Assembly (NCBI GenBank): GCA_046563655.1
Contig: CM102284.1
Coordinates: 6,758,001 to 6,822,000, forward strand
Reading direction: 5' to 3'
Length of the DNA: 64,000 bases
From: Yuukianura sp. NJ FZ-2021
Taxonomy: Eukaryota
Shown: positions 21,691 through 31,625 of the stretch, in pieces
Position numbering within the stretch: the stretch's first letter is position 1
Layout: each line of letters starts with the position of its first letter
The notes under the pieces: model-generated
What the model saw: only the letters and a program-made list of their open reading frames with translations
Databases searched by the model: none
What the model was told of the DNA's origin: nothing
Translations under genes and position numbers: made by a program

Positions 21691-24126
21691 ATGCGGACGC
21701 TTTGTACTACGTGTAAGTTTGAACTTTGTTAGAACGTTTGTAGCAATTTTTTGGAAGTTGATTTTTGGTATAGTGTTTGAAATTCATAATTTTTGTAATT
21801 TTTTTTTCCAGATTTTCGATTTGTGGCTATGTCCACAGTGATCTTCGGTTCGTTACTGTCAAGCTGTATCGGTTCACGGGTAGACCCTACTGTCAATCCT
21901 ACTGCTATTGGAGCTGCTTCAGAAGCAAATGTCCACTTTGCCAGTGACCTGTACTCGGTAATTTTGGAAATAAAAATTTCAAAATTCCAACATTTTCAGT
22001 TTCAGTAGTTAGAGATGATGATTTTTAAGTTGTTCATATTTAAGGCTTACTTCAATCACATCTGCAAAAAATAACAAACTTTCACATATTGGTGTCTTCA
22101 TATTTCTGTTCCAAAATTTTTGTTTAAAAGGCTTTGAGGAAATCTCAACCAGAAAATTTGATCTTTTCTCCGCTGAGTGTGAGCGCAGTCCTTGCCATGC
22201 TGAAAACTGGTGCTCGTGGTGAAACTGAAAGAGAAATTCAAAAGGCTTTGCGCTTTCCACTTGAAGATAACAGACTTAACGAAGGCTGGAAGGGCATTCT
22301 GGAGTCAATGCGGGTAAGACAAAATTTGACATAACATGCCCGAACTTTGCTAAATTTCACTTTCTTAAGGAATACAGAGTAAAGATTGACGCAAAACGGT
22401 TTGCTTTAGTTTCGCCCGAGGTGTCGAAAAAAGTTTTCTGGAACACTTCAAACGAATTTTCTCACCTTCGCTTCTCTTAATGACAAAAATTAACGCCAAT
22501 TTCCTAACAACTTTCACCTTGAAGCCAAATCGGTTTTCTTCCACCATTAAATTTTATGATTCATTTCATTACGAGAGCTTGCTTGAACCAAAAACATAAA
22601 CAACTTACATAATGTTTGCAAAAACAAGTTCAAGTTTGCGTCATTTGTTAACTTTGTTAACTAACCTAAAAAGCATAACTTTTGATTCCAGGGAAAGAAA
22701 AACGTAACCTTGGATATTGCAAACAACGTTTACTCCAGTGCTGGATTTGAATTGAATCCGCAGTATGTCAAAGATCTTGCAAATTATTTTGCGGTCAAAG
22801 TTGAGCAATTGGATTTCACATCAGCACAATCTGCACGAACGATTAATAATTGGGTGGAAGGACTCACGCACAATCGGATCAAGGATTTGATCAGTCCAGG
22901 TAAGACTGATCAAAAATTAATGTTAAACTATGCCTAGGTCACTTTTTAGCTGATTTTTTAGTTAGAGGTCATTGACCTTTTGACCTATTTTGGTTTCTAG
23001 GTGACCTGGATTCGAATACCCGGCTCGTCCTGGTCAATGGAATTTACTTCAAGGGAAAATGGGCTAAGCAATTTGACCCAGAAGAAACAGCTCCAGGCCA
23101 ATTCCATATTTCACCGACGCAAGAAGTGACTGTGGACATGATGCAGATTGTTTCTGATTTTTCTTATGCCGAAGTCCCAGAACTTGATGCCCAAGCAGTT
23201 GGAATTCCATATCAGGCAAATTTCAAATTTTTAGAAAGGAACTTGGTTTTCAAAGAAAGTTTTCAAAAATGTTGATTTTTTTCAAATTTAGGAGAAGAAT
23301 TTCATGATGATCATCCTGCTTCCTCATAAGAAGAACGGACTTGCAGAAATGGAAGCCAAACTTAAGGATTATCCATTGACCCGCCTTCCACCGACGATGG
23401 AAAAAGAGAAAGTCAATTTGCAAATGCCAAAATTCAAGTTAGAGTCTACCATCGACTTGAAGGCTCCATTAAGCGCTGTAAGTTTTTGGCTTTTCGAGCA
23501 AATTGACATCAAATTTTGAAGGGTTTTTGCAATTTTGAAATTTTGAATTCTTCTTACGTTATAGTTAGGTTTGAGCTCCATTTTCTCTGAGGAGAAAGCC
23601 GATTTCACTGGAATTCCACAGAATCCACTTGGGAACAACCTCTACGTTTCCAAAGCCGTTCAGAAGGCATTCATTGAAGTGAATGAAGAAGGAAGCGAAG
23701 CGGCGGCAGCTACAGGTCAGTTTTTTTTTAGTGTTAAAAGATGACCTTCGTCCTTTGTCACATTGTAGAATCGTAGAATTTGGGAGTATAGCTTCAACGC
23801 TTTTCTAAACTTTCCTCTGCTTTCACTAGTTTCTAGCTTTTTGACTAAAATAGGTAATTCGGACTTCTTTTGAGAATTTGCAAGAGGTCAAGGGTTAAGT
23901 TAAGACAAAAAATGAATCTCATGAATGAGAAATTGACGGTTTGTTGAAATTAGGATCTTTGATACGGATGAAGAGATCTCTACCGGAGTTTAAAACAATT
24001 CAATTTGAAGTGAATCACCCATTTGTTAGTCTAATTGTTACGACTGATGACGAACCTACTCTCCTCTTCATGATCTCAGTTACTAAACCGTTAGGATTTG
24101 AAACGTCGCCTAAAGATGAACTCTAG
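21691..24126 (+). CDS. Inhibitory serpin, Spn42Da/Spn4-like; common exons plus terminal exon A (RMKR-S loop, C-terminal KDEL)
   Basis: Exons 21691-21712, 21812-21957, 22131-22313, 22692-22899, 23001-23215 (GC donor), 23292-23477, 23565-23715, 23954-24126. Motifs [36 protein letters not shown], hinge [20 protein letters not shown] at 24168. Confidence 0.93.
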
Positions 24127-24576
24127 TTACCTACAAAAAATCCTCACCTTACTAATTCAAATCTTCAAATAAAATTAAACGTTCAATTTTGTTGGTCAAC
24201 ACTGCTTCTCTAAACATCCGCTTAAATTTTTGTTTCCTTCTACGCACTCTTTTAAATCATAAAAACATAAGTTTGAATTGTAATATAGACCTGTGTTGTG
24301 ATTTGTTTCTTAAATAGTTATAATTATTAATGTGCCAAATACTTAGCTTTCAAAACGAAAATTTGAAATTTTGAAAAACTTGTTCTAAAAATTAGAGCTG
24401 AATCCTACATCGCAACTAATCTAATCCTTGCCTAGCTAAGCTGACAAACTTTGGTGAAGCGTTTTCCTGCGAATTTTTGGAATTTGTCCAGTTGAAATTT
24501 CCCAATTCTAAAAAGTGAATTTCATAAAGTGAAAGTTGCATTTTCTCGATTTACTTTCTCGCGGAACGCTCTTTAG

Positions 24577-24734
24577 AGGAAGCGGTAGCAGCCAGATTTC
24601 TATCAGATTCTGATGGGATTCCAGTGACAATTGACCACCCTTTTCTGTTTTTGGTTGTTTCGAAAACTGATCGACGCAATTCTAAATTTAAAATTAGGCA
24701 AATTCTGTTCATAGGCGTCATTTCATCAAAATGA
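24577..24734 (+). CDS. Serpin alternative terminal (RCL) exon B
   Basis: Phase-1 acceptor ctttag. Reads EEAVAAR-FLSDSDGIPVTIDHPFLFLVV...QILFIGVISSK*. Too short to appear in the ORF track. Confidence 0.8.
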
Positions 24735-24984
24735 ATTTTGTAAAACACCAAACTAAAAAAAACTGAATGAAAGAATCAAAAAGAAAATTACTTTCTCTTT
24801 GAAAAAACGGAAAACGATTTCAAATGAAAGTCGTCAATCAGTCATGAGAAATCGATAACATTTGCTTGACCTTTGGTTGAAATTGGAACTAAAATTGATT
24901 AAACTTGTACAAATTCGGAATGAACTTAATGAAACTAATAGTTTTGGTTTGAATGGGCGTGTCCCTTTGTATCCTTTATTCCAG

Positions 24985-25292
24985 GCGTAATGATTCAGGT
25001 CAAGAGTGCTTTTCCCAGACAACAACCAATTGATTTCATCTGTGACCAACCGTTCATGGCCATCATCTACGATATGAACTACGATCTCCATCTTTTCTGG
25101 ACTTCCGTCAGAAATCCACTGGTTGCAGAAGCTCAATTCAGAAACGAACCACTTACAGATGAAGAACACAAGAATAGTGAAGCAGGAGGCACCAAGGACA
25201 CCAAGGGCAGCGCAATTGCAGGTCAAGGGTCAATGACCTTGACTCTTGTCACCATAGGGTTCCTACACCTCACTTACCGAGCTTTTTACTAA
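24985..25292 (+). CDS. Serpin alternative terminal (RCL) exon C with a 57-aa extension ending in a GPI-like signal
   Basis: Phase-1 acceptor ttccag. Reads GVMIQVK-SAFPRQQPIDFICDQPF...LFWTSVRNP, then a polar linker and KGSAIAGQGSMTLTLVTIGFLHLTYRAFY*. Confidence 0.85.
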
Positions 25293-25517
25293 AATAACGA
25301 TTTTACTAAGCAAAGTCACAGTTTAACTTAAAATTTACGAATTTTTGACTTCTCATTTGGAAAAATTGTTCGTAGTTTTAATTTTTAATTCTCCCGTCCT
25401 TGGGTGTGGTGGGGCACGCACGGCCAAACTCACACTGACAACTTACACTTTTTTAAATTTAAGTTTTTTTGAAATCTTCACTGAATTTTGAAAAACAAAC
25501 AAGATTTTGTTGTGTAG

Positions 25518-25702
25518 TCGCCCGAATCGGTCGACGATTTTTCTTTGTGGAACAACAACCAGAGCCACGCAATGTCCGAGTCGACCATCCCTTTCACCTT
25601 ATGATTCTTGCGTCAACTGGACAAGCATTTGCGTCAGCAGTGACGCAGACGCTGCTCTTTTCAGCATCAGTAGTCCAGCCGACTCCGTCAGCCTCCAGCT
25701 AA
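25518..25702 (+). CDS. Serpin alternative terminal (RCL) exon D
   Basis: Phase-1 acceptor tgtgtag. Reads VARIGRR-FFFVEQQPEPRNVRVDHPFHLMIL...LLFSASVVQP. AATAAA at ~25829. Confidence 0.82.
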
Positions 25703-26038
25703 AATGTGTTACCCACCAACCCCCAAAAGTTTAAAACTCTTCCATTCCATATGTATAGATATGATTTTTAGAAATTTCAGTTTTTCTTTGAAAACCTTGT
25801 CTCAAATTTAGTTCAAACAACTGATAATAATAAAATACTTTTAATTTAAATCTGGAAGCTTTCGGAGTTCCACTTGTTTAATAGCGGTCTTTAGCGTCTG
25901 TAGAGTTGTACTTGCGGGGTTTGATGTCTGTAAAGTCTAAAATGTGATTTGGTTTGTTAAAGCTTATGGGACTTATTTAGTTCAAAAAAATTTCGGTGGT
26001 TTTAATTAACCTCTGCTTGGAAACTTGTGACCTTGTAG

Positions 26039-26220
26039 CGTTTACATTGATGGCGAGGTCAGCTAAGAGACCAACAAAACCAAAACAAATGATCGTTGAT
26101 CATCCGTTTGCGTTTGCAATCTGTGCCAAGCCAGGAAAAACGGAAAACTGGACGCTACTTTTCGTCGGAAAAGTGACAAATCTACCAAAGAAGCATCCAA
26201 AATCTAAGCAAAAGTTCTGA
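26039..26220 (+). CDS. Serpin alternative terminal (RCL) exon E
   Basis: Phase-1 acceptor ttgtag. Reads AFTLMAR-SAKRPTKPKQMIVDHPFAFAI...LLFVGKVTNLPKKHPKSKQKF*. AATAAA at ~26290. Confidence 0.85.
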
Positions 26221-26606: not shown

Positions 26607-27089
26607 TGAATGCTCTTCTCTGGCGGGAAAAGTTTGAATTTTTCAATTTTAAAATTTAAACATTTTTAATTTCAAATTGATTCAAACATCAAACTTCAAA
26701 GCATTTATCTTTACGCAGTTTCTGCAACGATAGTTTTAATTAACTTTTTTAATTAATTAGGTGTAGCGTCGTTTGACAACTGTCTTTGTGATTTTGTACA
26801 ATACATTGTGATTCTGTGAGTGAAATAGCGTCGTGTAGCGGGGATCACTTGAGGTTCAAAATGGGAAAACAACAACTTTGAGAAAACATCTTTTGCGACT
26901 AAGGTTAAGTTAGATTTCAAATCAAAGTTTAAATTAAGTAAGCATGAAACTGTAATGGTAATGATTAATTGTGGCTACTTGTTGACAGTTTCTCAGAAAT
27001 CACGAATTGCAAGCAGTTTTTTAATTGAGGCGCGGAGGACAGTGAACCAAGCAGTCAAATGAAGAGCAAATTGATCGAAGAATAGCAAA

Positions 27090-30000
27090 ATGGAGTTCAC
27101 GTCTGATAATTTGGTGAAGGCTGTACTTGAATTTTACAACCATGCAGAATCACTGAATGTGGAATGTCATGAATGGCTAAAAAGTTGCCAGTCGTCACGA
27201 CAAGCATGGACACTCGTCTGGCCACTGCTCGAGTCATCCCAGGTCATTCACGTTCAATACATGGCAGCCAATATACTGCATTACAAAGTATCAAGACAGC
27301 TGTCGGAACTTCCGGTGGAGGACTATTTGGCATTGAAGGATAATTTGGTGGCTGCAGTGGCTCGATGCATCAATGGTCCGTCAGTTGTTTTGACAAGGTT
27401 GCAGTTGACGGTAAGATTTCTACATGGGAATTCAAATTCGATCTAATAGGAGGCCAGCAGAAGTTCTGCTGCAGAACTTATACTTTTGTTTTTGTTTTGC
27501 AGCTTGGTGTCTTCATTGCAAACACGATTGGTCAGATTTGGCCTAACCCATTAGAAGATCTAGGAGCTGTGTTTCAACCCCACAATTTCCCTGGAGTTCC
27601 AGAAGAAGCAGTTACCAAACTCCTAATTCAAGTCTTCGGTTATGTTCCTGAACAAGCGCAATCGGTCTGGCAACATTCTTCCAGAAAAAGTGAAGCGCAT
27701 CGCGAGTTACAGAGTAAAGGAGAGTCAAGTAAGTTTCTGACATCATCGTGTTGTAATATCTGGTATTTAGAGTGACTAAGATTTGATTCAGCGTACGTTT
27801 ATTTTATATCAACAGTGTTCAACTGGCTATTTACTATCGTAAAATCACAACAGAACGTTGAATTGATAAAAGAAGCGCTGCGAGCCATGACCCTCTGGAT
27901 GAAAATGCTGAGTATCTGCGAGTGGCATGACATGTCGAATCTTCTGGACATTCTAGTCAGTCTTTGCAAAGACTCCATACGTTTGGGAGACTTTACATTA
28001 TGCGATCTTTGTCTTGAGATGCTCAGTGGGATTATCTGTGATCCAAACACGCATCACTTTCCTACGGTCATTCTTCTCATATTGGACAAAATCGTCCAAC
28101 TGGAGCCTACTCTGGAGGTCATTTTAGAACTTCATGATATGGTAGCTTTCTAAAACAATTATCATCATTGCCTACTAGTATTGAATAGTGATTCACAAAG
28201 TTTACTTTTATAAACAAACAGGAGATGGCCGGATCCTTCTACGGTATGTACGTCGCATTGGCTGAATGTCACTCCAGACTCGTTGTCGAAGTTTGTGACG
28301 AGGAGTGCAGTCATAACAAGGCCAACCCGAAGAATCGTGCGAATATGCTCAAGTTGGTTGATATTCTTCTTCGCTGTGCTGCCACTCCTGGAGCCTATCC
28401 AATTGACGAAACAGTTAGCAGCATTACGATCTCAGTCTGGTATTCGTTTGTGGTAAGTCATTAATAATTCTAAGTAACTTATTATAATTTTCAGTTTTCT
28501 CTAATGTTAAATTCTGTTTGTAGGAGGAAATACAACCAAAGCAATCGGAAGGACTCAAGTACGCAAGGTTGATGCAAGTATTTGAATGGGTTTATAAGTC
28601 TCTTGGAGAAATATTGGTAAAGAAGGCTCGGTTTCCTTTGAGTGACTCGGACTGGAACGCTGAAGAGAAAGAACAGTTTCGCATTTACCGACAAGACGTT
28701 TGTGATTGCCTTACTTACTGCTTCGAACTTCGCGGATGGACAATGCTCAATGAAATGATCGACGCCGCTGAGCAACAATTGAGTGTTATCAAGGTAGTGA
28801 TTTGCAGACTCTTAATTAAGATGAACATCGTCTGAACTGTTTTGTATTTTGTCGTTTAGAATCCAGAAATGCTGACCACTTTGTGGCCAGAACTCGAAAG
28901 CCTTCTCATGGGAATACGTGCCGTCACTGAAAACATATCAAATGACACAGATCCACTGCTGATAGAACCAATGACTCGGGCGTTCAACGTTGTCATCAAG
29001 ATTCTCAAACTGAATCAAGTCTTTCGTATGCCTAAAGTTTACCAAGCAGCTGCTGAATGCATAAGTACGAGCGAAGTACTCAAATTGCAAAATACAACAA
29101 ACTTGTCTTAATTTTGTTCTGTTTTTCTTCAGGTTCATGCAGCGGGATGCTGCATTTGTTTGAAAATGCTGTAAGGAACTTGATTGGTTTCATACTCGAA
29201 GGTCTCTTCATTCCAGAATCGTCATCTTCAGCAACTCTGACACTCAAATCTCTCAGTCGCGATTGTACGAAACTCTTGGCTGGATTTACCCCACAAATTC
29301 TTTCGTCTTGTAAAGTAAGTTTAACACCAATTTCAAAAATCTGACCGAAGTTTTGCTAATTGGTTTCCTTTGTAATGTAATTCAGCAAGCATTGGACAGT
29401 GGTGTGATGTCACAAAACGATTCGATAAGACTGGTATTCTGTATTGGAAAATTCTTGCCTTATTTACCACATGAACAAATCATCACCGCTGTCAACGAAA
29501 TCTTTTCTCCAAGTTTGCTGAACCTTCATGGAATAGCGGGCGAAGAGGTGAGAATTCAATAAGTCGCGTCAATTGTTAGAGTTTACATAACTCCATTTTT
29601 ACAGCCACGAGTGGAAACGAGACATCAATTGATCGTGATTTTGCGCATTATGAGCACTCTCTGCTCATCACTGGACGTGGATGACCGTGATTCGGAAGAG
29701 GAAGAGGACATGTCTGCTTCAGAATCAGCTGTTCCCGGAGACAACAACAATTATTCTAGTCAAAACAGAGTTGAATCACCGGGCCCTTCTGGTTCCAGTG
29801 CCAGGACGTCTGGATCCAGAATTGTGGAAGAAGTGAATCCAAATGTGAAACCGAGGAAACTCCGTGACCTCTCTAGTCAACCTTTGATTCCAGTAGTAGA
29901 ACAGATTCTGCCTGTTCTTGTTCCGCTTGCGGAGAAGTGGTCCAGAGATGAAGAAGTTATGGAAACACTGTTTTCGATTTTGAAGCATACACTCAGCACG

Positions 30001-31625
30001 ATCCACGCTTCGAGTCAAATTGTCATTGACTTTGCCGTGAAGCTGGTCATAATTTCGTACCGACTTCATCCGGTTCCTCCTGCAACAGCGCTTGCGAAGC
30101 AGGTCAGACACTGAAAACTTTCACACTTGCTGAATTCTGTATTTGATTGATTTTGTTGAAGACACTGGGTTTTTGTATTGCAGATTCTACTGATGCTCGG
30201 CGGAGAAAATTTTCATTCACAATGTCAATTTTTGAAAGAAATTCACATGCTCTGTGCCGATACTCTGAAGAATCCTAGAGAGAATTTGGATTTTACGGAG
30301 TCTTACTTCTCCTTTATTGGTCATCTCATACGTAAACAGCCAGAAATTGTGAATGGATCTTCAATTGATATCGAACCCATGCTAACCATGTGTAAGTTAA
30401 TACACTTTCACTTGATTTTTAAACCAATGCTGTAGTTTGCTTGTTCTTGCAGCTATCAACCTTTTGAACTACTCGGAAGCACCGCTGCTGAAGGCAGGAA
30501 TCTACTTTGTACAAGTGACGCTGGAAAAAGCTGGATCTCTTACTCCACCACTGGTGGATTTTTACCGAAGTCGTGGACAGTTGCTGCTGCACACGATTAT
30601 TTTAGGAATTGGTAATGCAATTGTCCGTCTCGAACGATTATAAGCGTTAAAAATTAATTGAATTCATATTGTTGTTTGAATGAATTACAGGCTGCTCTGT
30701 TCCACGATCAGCGGTTCACCATTTTTCGGAAATCTTTATTTTTCTAAACAAGACTTTTACGGGAGAGTGGAGAAAGTGGTTACAGGATGCATTGTCTCCG
30801 CCTGGATTTCCGTCGCCACATTGCTCGGCTGATGCGAAGAACAAATTTTTCATGAAACTTGCAAAGTAAGTTGCCGTACTAAAAAAAAAATTGGTGATCG
30901 TCAGAATTTTTCAGAGTTTTAAAGTTAACGTGAACTCTTCTCTTGGTCGAAGTAAACTTGGGTTCCGCGCCTGTCCCCACCCGTTCAAATTTTCGCGCTG
31001 CCTCATTGTCCCCACCCAGTGTCCCCACCGGATGGATACATTTGTCCCCACTTGGTGGGGACAAATGTGTACCCACCAGCCGTACACCAAGTCCCCCTAG
31101 CGGCTGAAGTGGAACTAGCGAATTTGAGCTGGCAACGTTGTAGCATTGCTCCATTGTACCCACCCAGGGCAGATGTAATCAACTTAGCTAAACTCAATAA
31201 GTCAAACCTACAGACGTAATCAATATTGCGTGCTTTACCAAACCTAACGCCGCGCCTTCGGCGCGGGAAAATATAACAGGATTTACCAAATCAAAAAGGA
31301 AAAAACGTTGCCAGCTTGAATTCAGATGTTATTATATTGCCGCTAGGTGGACGTACTGCTTTTGGTCGTGGTGGGGACAAATGTATCCATCCGGTGGGGA
31401 CACTGGGTGGGTACAATGGAGGCAGCGGGAAAATTTGAACGGGTGGGGACAGGCGCGGAACCCAAGTTTAGTTCAACCCTTCTCTTAGTAACAACATTTT
31501 AAATGTCGCTTTCTAGGGACCGAGCAACGAAAAGGACGATAGCAGATGCAATTACAGATTTTGCGTTGGCTTGTCGCAACATGTCTGGAAGTGAATATGC
31601 TTCAGCTACATCGAAGCGATTGTAG
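27090..31625 (+). CDS. IPO13: Importin-13 (karyopherin-beta family; cadmus-like)
   Basis: Multi-exon HEAT-repeat protein. N-terminal IBN_N-like domain (WLKSCQSSRQAW...QYMAANILHYKV), PGAYPIDETVS, EKEQFRIYRQD, and C-terminal DFALACRNMSGSEYA resembling the IPO13 end. Last exon 31517-31625. Confidence 0.88.
30945..31478. mobile_element. MITE with ~105-bp imperfect TIRs and an 8-bp TSD, in the last intron of importin-13
   Basis: Left ggtcgaagtaaacttgggttccgcgcctgtccccacccg... is the near reverse complement of right ...cgggtggggacaggcgcggaacccaagtttagttcaacc. Identical flanks cttctctt at 30937-30944 and 31479-31486. Confidence 0.92.

Follow-up and report, generated by a model that had tools for sequence, protein, structure and literature searches.

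The last exon C (24985-25292, + strand) of a serpin gene in the window, by which we mean the whole 64-kb stretch of DNA that was analysed, encodes a normal serpin end followed by a 57-residue tail, and the best-supported reading of this tail, which we hold with moderate confidence, is that it carries a C-terminal GPI-attachment signal, so that isoform C would be GPI-anchored. Isoform C is thus probably tethered to the cell surface. The reading draws on the layout of the tail and on the reappearance of the same layout in a diverged relative, P0001.

The gene is a single serpin gene on the + strand, spanning 21829-26220, and its six common exons give an uninterrupted frame. Exon 1 (21829-21957) provides the start codon and an N-terminal stretch that runs into SRVDP..., the beginning of the serpin core, and it is followed by the common serpin exons 2 (22131-22313), 3 (22692-22899), 4 (23001-23215) and 5 (23292-23477). 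Exon 6 (23565-23715) ends in an inhibitory hinge, the sole hinge motif within the 64-kb window, and in a phase-1 donor, CAG|GTCAGT, at 23715. When single common exons were compared with the Pfam Serpin profile (PF00079), E-values of 4e-21, 1.2e-10 and 1.4e-13 were obtained. The hinge of exon 6 fits the inhibitory consensus, which has Glu at P17, Gly at P15, Ser or Thr at P14 and small residues at P12-P9. Part of this consensus is restated in a section of PMC8310332. Judged from these matches, the gene product is a member of the serpin superfamily, of the inhibitory type by its hinge, and inhibition is predicted. As for the gene structure, exon 4 apparently uses a GC donor (CAG|GCAAAT; intron 23216-23291), across which the frame passes from ...IPYQ directly to EKNFMM.... 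The serpin introns are short (76-378 bp) and the genome is compact, and an importin-beta family gene (27075-30114; Pfam IBN_N, E 7.1e-6 for its first exon) lies on the same strand, ~850 bp 3' of the last serpin cassette.

The phase-1 donor at 23715 is followed by five cassettes, all of them on the + strand and phase-compatible with it. Since each has its own stop, they would be mutually exclusive last exons. Each encodes an -[HQ]PF- core motif (DHPF, DQPF or NHPF) together with a weak match to the Serpin C-terminus. Exon A (23954-24126) has a dibasic loop, RMKR, and the C-terminus ...SPKDEL, which is of the ER-retrieval type, with an AATAAA 42 nt past the stop. Exon B (~24577-24734), for which several AG are possible as the acceptor, ends at the normal serpin C-terminus; its acceptor and those of exon D (~25518-25702) and exon E (~26039-26220) were placed by inference. 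All four of these exons stop 0 to about 14 residues past the serpin end, and exon C alone is long-tailed. At its end, exon E has a basic, lysine-rich tail, ...LPKKHPKSKQKF, which extends about 11-12 residues past the serpin fold and may serve as a further address, for instance by binding polyanions or membranes.

The acceptor of exon C (...cctttattccAG|G, with the AG at 24983-24984) sets the exon start at 24985, and its pyrimidine tract is the best among the five cassettes. In the phase dictated by the common donor CAG|GTCAGT, the frame is open to the TAA at 25290-25292. The serpin part (24985-25118) encodes the loop VMIQVK|SAF and then strands s1C, s4B and s5B up to VRNP; counted from the hinge Glu, the P1 residue is a Lys (codon 25002-25004), at the canonical distance, and the P1' residue a Ser. 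The exon-C peptide matched positions 334-370 of the Serpin profile weakly (E 0.0062; on its own below the gathering score), and the final profile position (370 of 370) corresponded to residue 44 of the peptide, at VRNP, leaving 57 residues. The sequence-only reading had claimed precisely such a 57-residue extension after VRNP, composed of a polar linker, a G-S-A triplet, the spacer IAGQGS and a hydrophobic end without a cytoplasmic tail; the frame and the profile end bear out the extension, and every part was located where it had been placed. Thus, the linker (LVAEAQFRNEPLTDEEHKNSEAGGTKDTK, 25119-25205) consists of 29 polar and charged residues, the candidate omega, omega+1 and omega+2 residues G432-S433-A434 (25206-25214) lie 28-26 residues from the end, the spacer IAGQGS (25215-25232) takes up 6-7 residues, and the terminal hydrophobic stretch (MTLTLVTIGFLHLTYRAFY, 25233-25289, or 25233-25292 including the TAA) has nothing after it. 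A search of 24985-25700 for an internal donor that would remove the tail gave no site at ≥7/9 consensus, a measure on which the gene's real donors score 6-8. On the opposite strand, an antisense ORF (24834-25229, - strand, 131 aa) gave no match to Pfam and was discarded as a gene candidate; the simplest view is that the coding strand produces it incidentally.

We scored the exon-C peptide (101 residues) against 1,835,955,588 representative proteins with a cut-off of E ≤0.001. As a result, P0001 (161 aa, E 5.5e-7) was the sole match. This protein is of JGI/IMG origin, forms a cluster of one member and is found on 2 contigs, the longer of 1642 bp. It runs colinear with residues 290-458 of the 459-aa spliced isoform C, without gaps at the junctions 307|308 and 357|358, and is identical to it at 55/67 positions of the common part, 21/44 of the exon C serpin part and 15/49 of the aligned tail positions (31%), the exon-C region overall being 35-38% identical. 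P0001 matched the Pfam Serpin profile with an E-value of 1e-29, and the domain ends at residue 111, with a 50-residue tail beyond. Its reactive site reads VK|SA, with Lys at P1 as in exon C. The best PDB match of P0001 was neuroserpin (E 3.3e-19), and in that alignment VK|SA is placed over ISR|MA, the Arg of which we take to be the neuroserpin reactive-site residue. Whether P0001 derives from a spliced transcript or from a gene copy lacking introns, its tail is encoded in continuity with the serpin body.

Comparison of the two tails revealed that NPLV, the Gly of [KR]-G-[SA]-[AS], G-Q-x-S in the spacer, the T-L and G of the hydrophobic block and the R-A near the end are invariant, as are N53 and E59-E60. 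The counterparts in P0001 are RGAS at omega, the spacer PTGQQS(A) and AWTLISLGLFYAF, a block of about 13 residues without charge. As aligned, the P0001 tail therefore matches that of exon C in its parts, their order and their spacing, despite the low identity. The check for the tail in orthologous exons, which had been proposed along with the initial claim, was thus positive in the one relative found, and P0001, although a single relative, provides the strongest new support for the tail layout.

Other searches were directed at further relatives. Word-index protein searches gave 63 candidates for the exon-C peptide and 53 for P0001 residues 69-161, both against longer proteins and with none significant, and 16 for the two-sequence alignment against similar-length proteins, among which only P0001 itself was recovered; these blanks are weak, as annotated isoforms may hide in clusters represented by another isoform. 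An ESM Atlas search with the tail gave no usable match. A metagenome scan with P0001 returned at least 603 pattern matches, with 499 relatives by tblastn among the matches listed, of which 80 loci were kept; the matches were dominated by generic serpins sharing the FIEVNEEG pattern, and the contig of P0001 lies outside the 80 loci. When both tails were compared with these 80 loci by tblastn, nothing was found below E = 1. The sole close relative among the 80 loci was L062, a genomic contig that is 75% identical in the last common exon, has a phase-1 donor as in the window, and stops before any C-type exon. At the first-cassette position (1733-2023), L062 encodes RTRR...RDEL, as exon A encodes RMKR...KDEL. 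Judged by these motifs, the furin-type ER isoform is conserved and is first in the array in both the window and L062. In addition, the equivalents of exons 3 and 4 form one continuous exon in L062 (280-867), without an intron at ...ISPG|D..., and by this comparison intron positions differ between close relatives of the serpin gene.

The tail was compared with the published layout of GPI signals. As set out in the sections of PMC2571997 that treat the signal, a little-structured linker of ~11 residues is followed by small residues at omega-1 to omega+2, with omega typically C, D, G, N or S, by a moderately polar spacer at omega+3 to omega+9, and by a hydrophobic tail that starts at omega+10 and takes up the rest of the protein. 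With G432 as omega, the window tail has S and A at omega+1 and omega+2, an uncharged spacer IAGQGS(M) and a tail of 18-19 residues, and the 10 residues preceding the omega candidate have a mean Kyte-Doolittle (KD) value <0. Likewise, with the Gly of P0001 as omega, A and S follow, the spacer PTGQQS(A) is uncharged, and the tail has 16-17 residues. The hydrophobic tail reaches the last residue in both the window and P0001, but it is weak and contains His and Arg, and the residue at omega-1, Lys in the window and Arg in P0001, is not small. The GPI assignment of the sequence-only reading thus stands as to the layout, which fits the published one and is kept in P0001, and is less well served at omega-1 and by the weak hydrophobic end.

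We turned the layout of PMC2571997, as given in those sections, into a rule of thumb; it was devised after the window tail had been seen, so that only the pass of P0001 is independent, and it does not equal a trained predictor. Both tails passed, in comparison with 32/100,000 shuffled versions of the window tail and 50/100,000 of the P0001 tail. None of the 309 control ORFs (≥100 aa, from the 80 fetched loci) passed, nor did exons A, B, D and E. Across the window, the exon-C ORF was the only one to pass, as 1/14 ATG ORFs of ≥100 aa and 1/352 stop-to-stop ORFs of ≥57 aa. According to the relevant part of PMC10863630, GPI and TM predictors are unreliable for fly proteins, and only about a third of the GPI-anchored members of the Dpr/DIP proteins of Drosophila are predicted as such. 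This weakens any GPI call made purely from sequence, our rule of thumb included.

A GPI-anchored precursor is expected to have an N-terminal ER signal peptide. An in-frame stop lies 10 codons 5' of the exon 1 start codon. The N-terminus of exon 1 contains an 11-residue hydrophobic core (best KD mean 2.12) without a basic n-region, and, as a rule of thumb, the C and G found at -3/-1 are compatible with cleavage; this N-terminus is signal-like. A KDEL-type end is meaningful only for a protein inside the secretory pathway. Given the KDEL of exon A and the RDEL of L062, ER entry of the common N-terminus can be argued, and the KDEL on the sister isoform argues for it better than the N-terminal sequence does. 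Two further claims of the sequence-only reading, that the common exons supply a signal-like N-terminus and that the same gene makes an ER-retained furin-type isoform, are accordingly in keeping with the hydrophobic core of exon 1 and with the RMKR loop plus KDEL of exon A, respectively.

Three other accounts of the tail were weighed. It is very unlikely, in our estimate, that exon C or its tail is unused here, as a decaying or rarely spliced cassette with a functionless frame after VRNP. Such an account could point to the annotated protein collections, in which no protein with exon C was found, and to the 3' side of the exon, where no AATAAA or ATTAAA occurs for 536 nt past the stop, until 25829, beyond exon D; exons A, B, D and E have a poly(A) hexamer within 42-164 nt of the stop, and exon C transcripts may use a non-canonical poly(A) signal or a long 3' UTR through cassette D. 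The strong acceptor, the correct phase and the coding character of the tail speak against it. Given the local base composition, 57 codons would lack a stop with a probability of 0.018, and 6.8% of 57-codon + strand windows are open empirically, real exons counted in. With a codon table of 891 codons, taken from the six common exons and four stretches of the importin-like neighbour gene, the codon-usage log-likelihood of 56/57 tail codons (25122-25289) was +9.6 bits in frame, versus -1.3 and -23.5 bits in the other frames, and none of the 169 non-coding windows between the cassettes reached this total (mean -26.5, maximum 6.9). The tail and the serpin part of exon C are similar in this respect (0.17 vs 0.21 bits per codon). 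The tail is therefore coding-like and more than a chance open frame. In addition, the tail layout is kept in P0001 even though the exon-C region has diverged to the extent given above. In terms of gene structure, we read exon C as a genuine last coding exon, probably mutually exclusive with the other four cassettes, in a serpin gene of the Spn42Da type.

If exon C is used, its tail could instead be an uncleaved type I single-pass anchor with a 4-residue cytoplasmic stub, which would make the protein membrane-bound and not GPI-linked, an account that we regard as improbable. A signal-like N-terminus combined with a C-terminal hydrophobic stretch and a subsequent basic residue does resemble a stop-transfer arrangement, the ends being R-A-F-Y in the window and Q-R-A-L in P0001, and a schistosome serpin has reportedly been published as membrane-anchored, in the title of Huang et al. 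1999. Furthermore, software easily confuses TM and GPI signals, as stated in the part of PMC10863630 on prediction. The hydrophobic end is strongly hydrophobic at about 11 positions and also includes four Thr, one His and, four residues from the end, an Arg; its best 9-mer, LTLVTIGFL, has a KD of 2.34, and over the last 20 residues the KD averages 0.94 in the window, a value reached by 5.8% of control ORFs, and 0.54 in P0001. A membrane-spanning helix usually needs a 19-mer KD of ≥1.6, whereas the best 19-mers reach 1.29 in the window tail and 0.75 in the P0001 tail, the uncharged stretches have about 15 and about 13 residues, and the summed 19-mer insertion energies are about +4.5 and +8.1 kcal/mol. 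By these values, neither tail is hydrophobic enough to cross the membrane as a helix. The same weakness of the hydrophobic block would suit a soluble isoform C, in which the tail is kept for another role, such as a sorting or retention signal, an amphipathic helix for a partner or lipid particles, or a propeptide. We consider this unlikely, yet less so than the other two accounts. C-terminal address codes of serpins are known, including the 13-residue neuroserpin signal and KDEL/HDEL-type ends, as described in part of PMC2556349, and the invariant N53, E59-E60, G-Q-x-S and R-A are not required of a pure GPI signal. However, the triplet, the spacer and the uncharged block keep their order and spacing at 15/49 identity, which is typical of a physicochemical signal and not of a binding motif, and the hydrophobic block is terminal in both species, with nothing after it. 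An AlphaFold2 model of the exon-C peptide from the two-row alignment, with a helix at 80-100, coil around the candidate omega residue and no confident structure in the linker, was too poor to use (mean pLDDT 39.8).

With GPI anchoring as the preferred reading, exon C would supply two things together, a Lys-P1 reactive loop and a candidate GPI-attachment signal, and we favour this combination somewhat over its absence. The common N-terminus would bring isoform C into the ER, where GPI transamidase would cut at or near G432, with loss of the last 27 residues, and the serpin would be transferred to the GPI lipid, to stand at the outer cell surface on a flexible stalk of about 29 residues. There, isoform C would trap proteases that cleave after Lys, its predicted target class. 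If the loop were cut at K364|S365, the anchor would be on the small C-terminal fragment, residues 365-432. In cleaved serpins, the C-terminal fragment stays in the fold non-covalently. Because the anchored fragment 365-432 would remain in the fold in this way, a covalent serpin-protease complex would stay on the cell.

By architecture, the window gene is a multi-loop serpin gene of the Spn42Da/Spn4 type. Spn42Da (Serpin 4) of Drosophila melanogaster has, in the passages of PMC4006314 and PMC2556349 that describe it, four loop exons and eight isoforms, among them forms with and without a signal peptide and an ER form that inhibits furin, and alternative first exons set the presence of the signal peptide (PMC4006314). 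The two genes share one serpin body followed by mutually exclusive exons for the loop and C-terminus, and one furin-type inhibitor isoform with an ER-retention end (PMC4006314, PMC2556349), but the fly gene has four loop exons and the window gene five, and the same passages describe the fly isoforms as cytosolic, secreted or ER-retained and mention no hydrophobic or GPI-type tail. In comparisons with PDB sequences, the Spn42Da structure 4p0f was one of the best natural matches, in 4th place with exon 4 as the query and in 7th with P0001.

The closest likeness by mechanism is TFPI-beta, in which alternative 3' splicing swaps a soluble C-terminus for a GPI attachment sequence, so that one gene gives a soluble and a cell-surface protease inhibitor, as described in part of PMC9314982. 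TFPI is, however, a Kunitz-type reversible inhibitor and not a serpin, and its splice choice leaves the inhibitory loop unchanged, whereas the exon C cassette carries both loop and address. We know of no alternative loop exons in the Schistosoma haematobium serpin ShSPI, the one that is reportedly called membrane-anchored in the title of Huang et al. 1999. That protein, reported from the 'surface of adult worms' in a section of PMC8310332, is alike in being a serpin on the cell surface and differs in coming from a flatworm and in having an atypical hinge. Neuroserpin and the KDEL-, HEEL- and SDEL-ended serpins resemble isoform C in that a short C-terminal extension serves as a localisation code (PMC2556349), although their extensions have 4-13 residues and work via luminal receptors. 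The exon C tail differs from these in its 57 residues, its terminal hydrophobic block and its layout, which is that of a cleaved lipid-anchor signal.

Serpins are regarded as soluble, whether secreted, cytosolic or ER-retained. A review of fly serpins states that very few of them have N- or C-terminal extensions (PMC2770083). In full-text searches of the open literature (about 8.1 million PMC papers and 0.36 million preprints), we found no report of a GPI-anchored serpin in the titles and abstract openings of the matches listed. The sequence-only reading, too, knew of no characterised splice isoform of this kind. Among the wordings for membrane-anchored or transmembrane serpins only 'membrane-bound serpin' occurs.

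The cassettes could be viewed as 'specificity plus postcode' modules, in which A combines a furin-type loop with KDEL and the ER, C a Lys-P1 loop with GPI and the surface, and E a loop with a lysine-rich tail that may bind to matrix or membranes; we offer this view tentatively, as a little short of evenly balanced. If GPI anchoring is true, isoform C would be the first lipid-anchored serpin, and the cell surface a fourth serpin location, made by exon choice, with a single cassette switching target specificity and cellular address together. A trapped protease would be kept on the cell's own surface, where the complex could be endocytosed or sensed, and isoform C would be a cell-autonomous guard against, or a regulator of, pericellular trypsin-like proteases. 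This would provide a testable model for the control of such proteases in arthropods, a role that in vertebrates has its counterpart in membrane-bound Kunitz inhibitors, such as TFPI-beta. It would also raise a question specific to serpins, namely the fate of a covalent complex that is held at the membrane only via a non-covalently bound C-terminal fragment.
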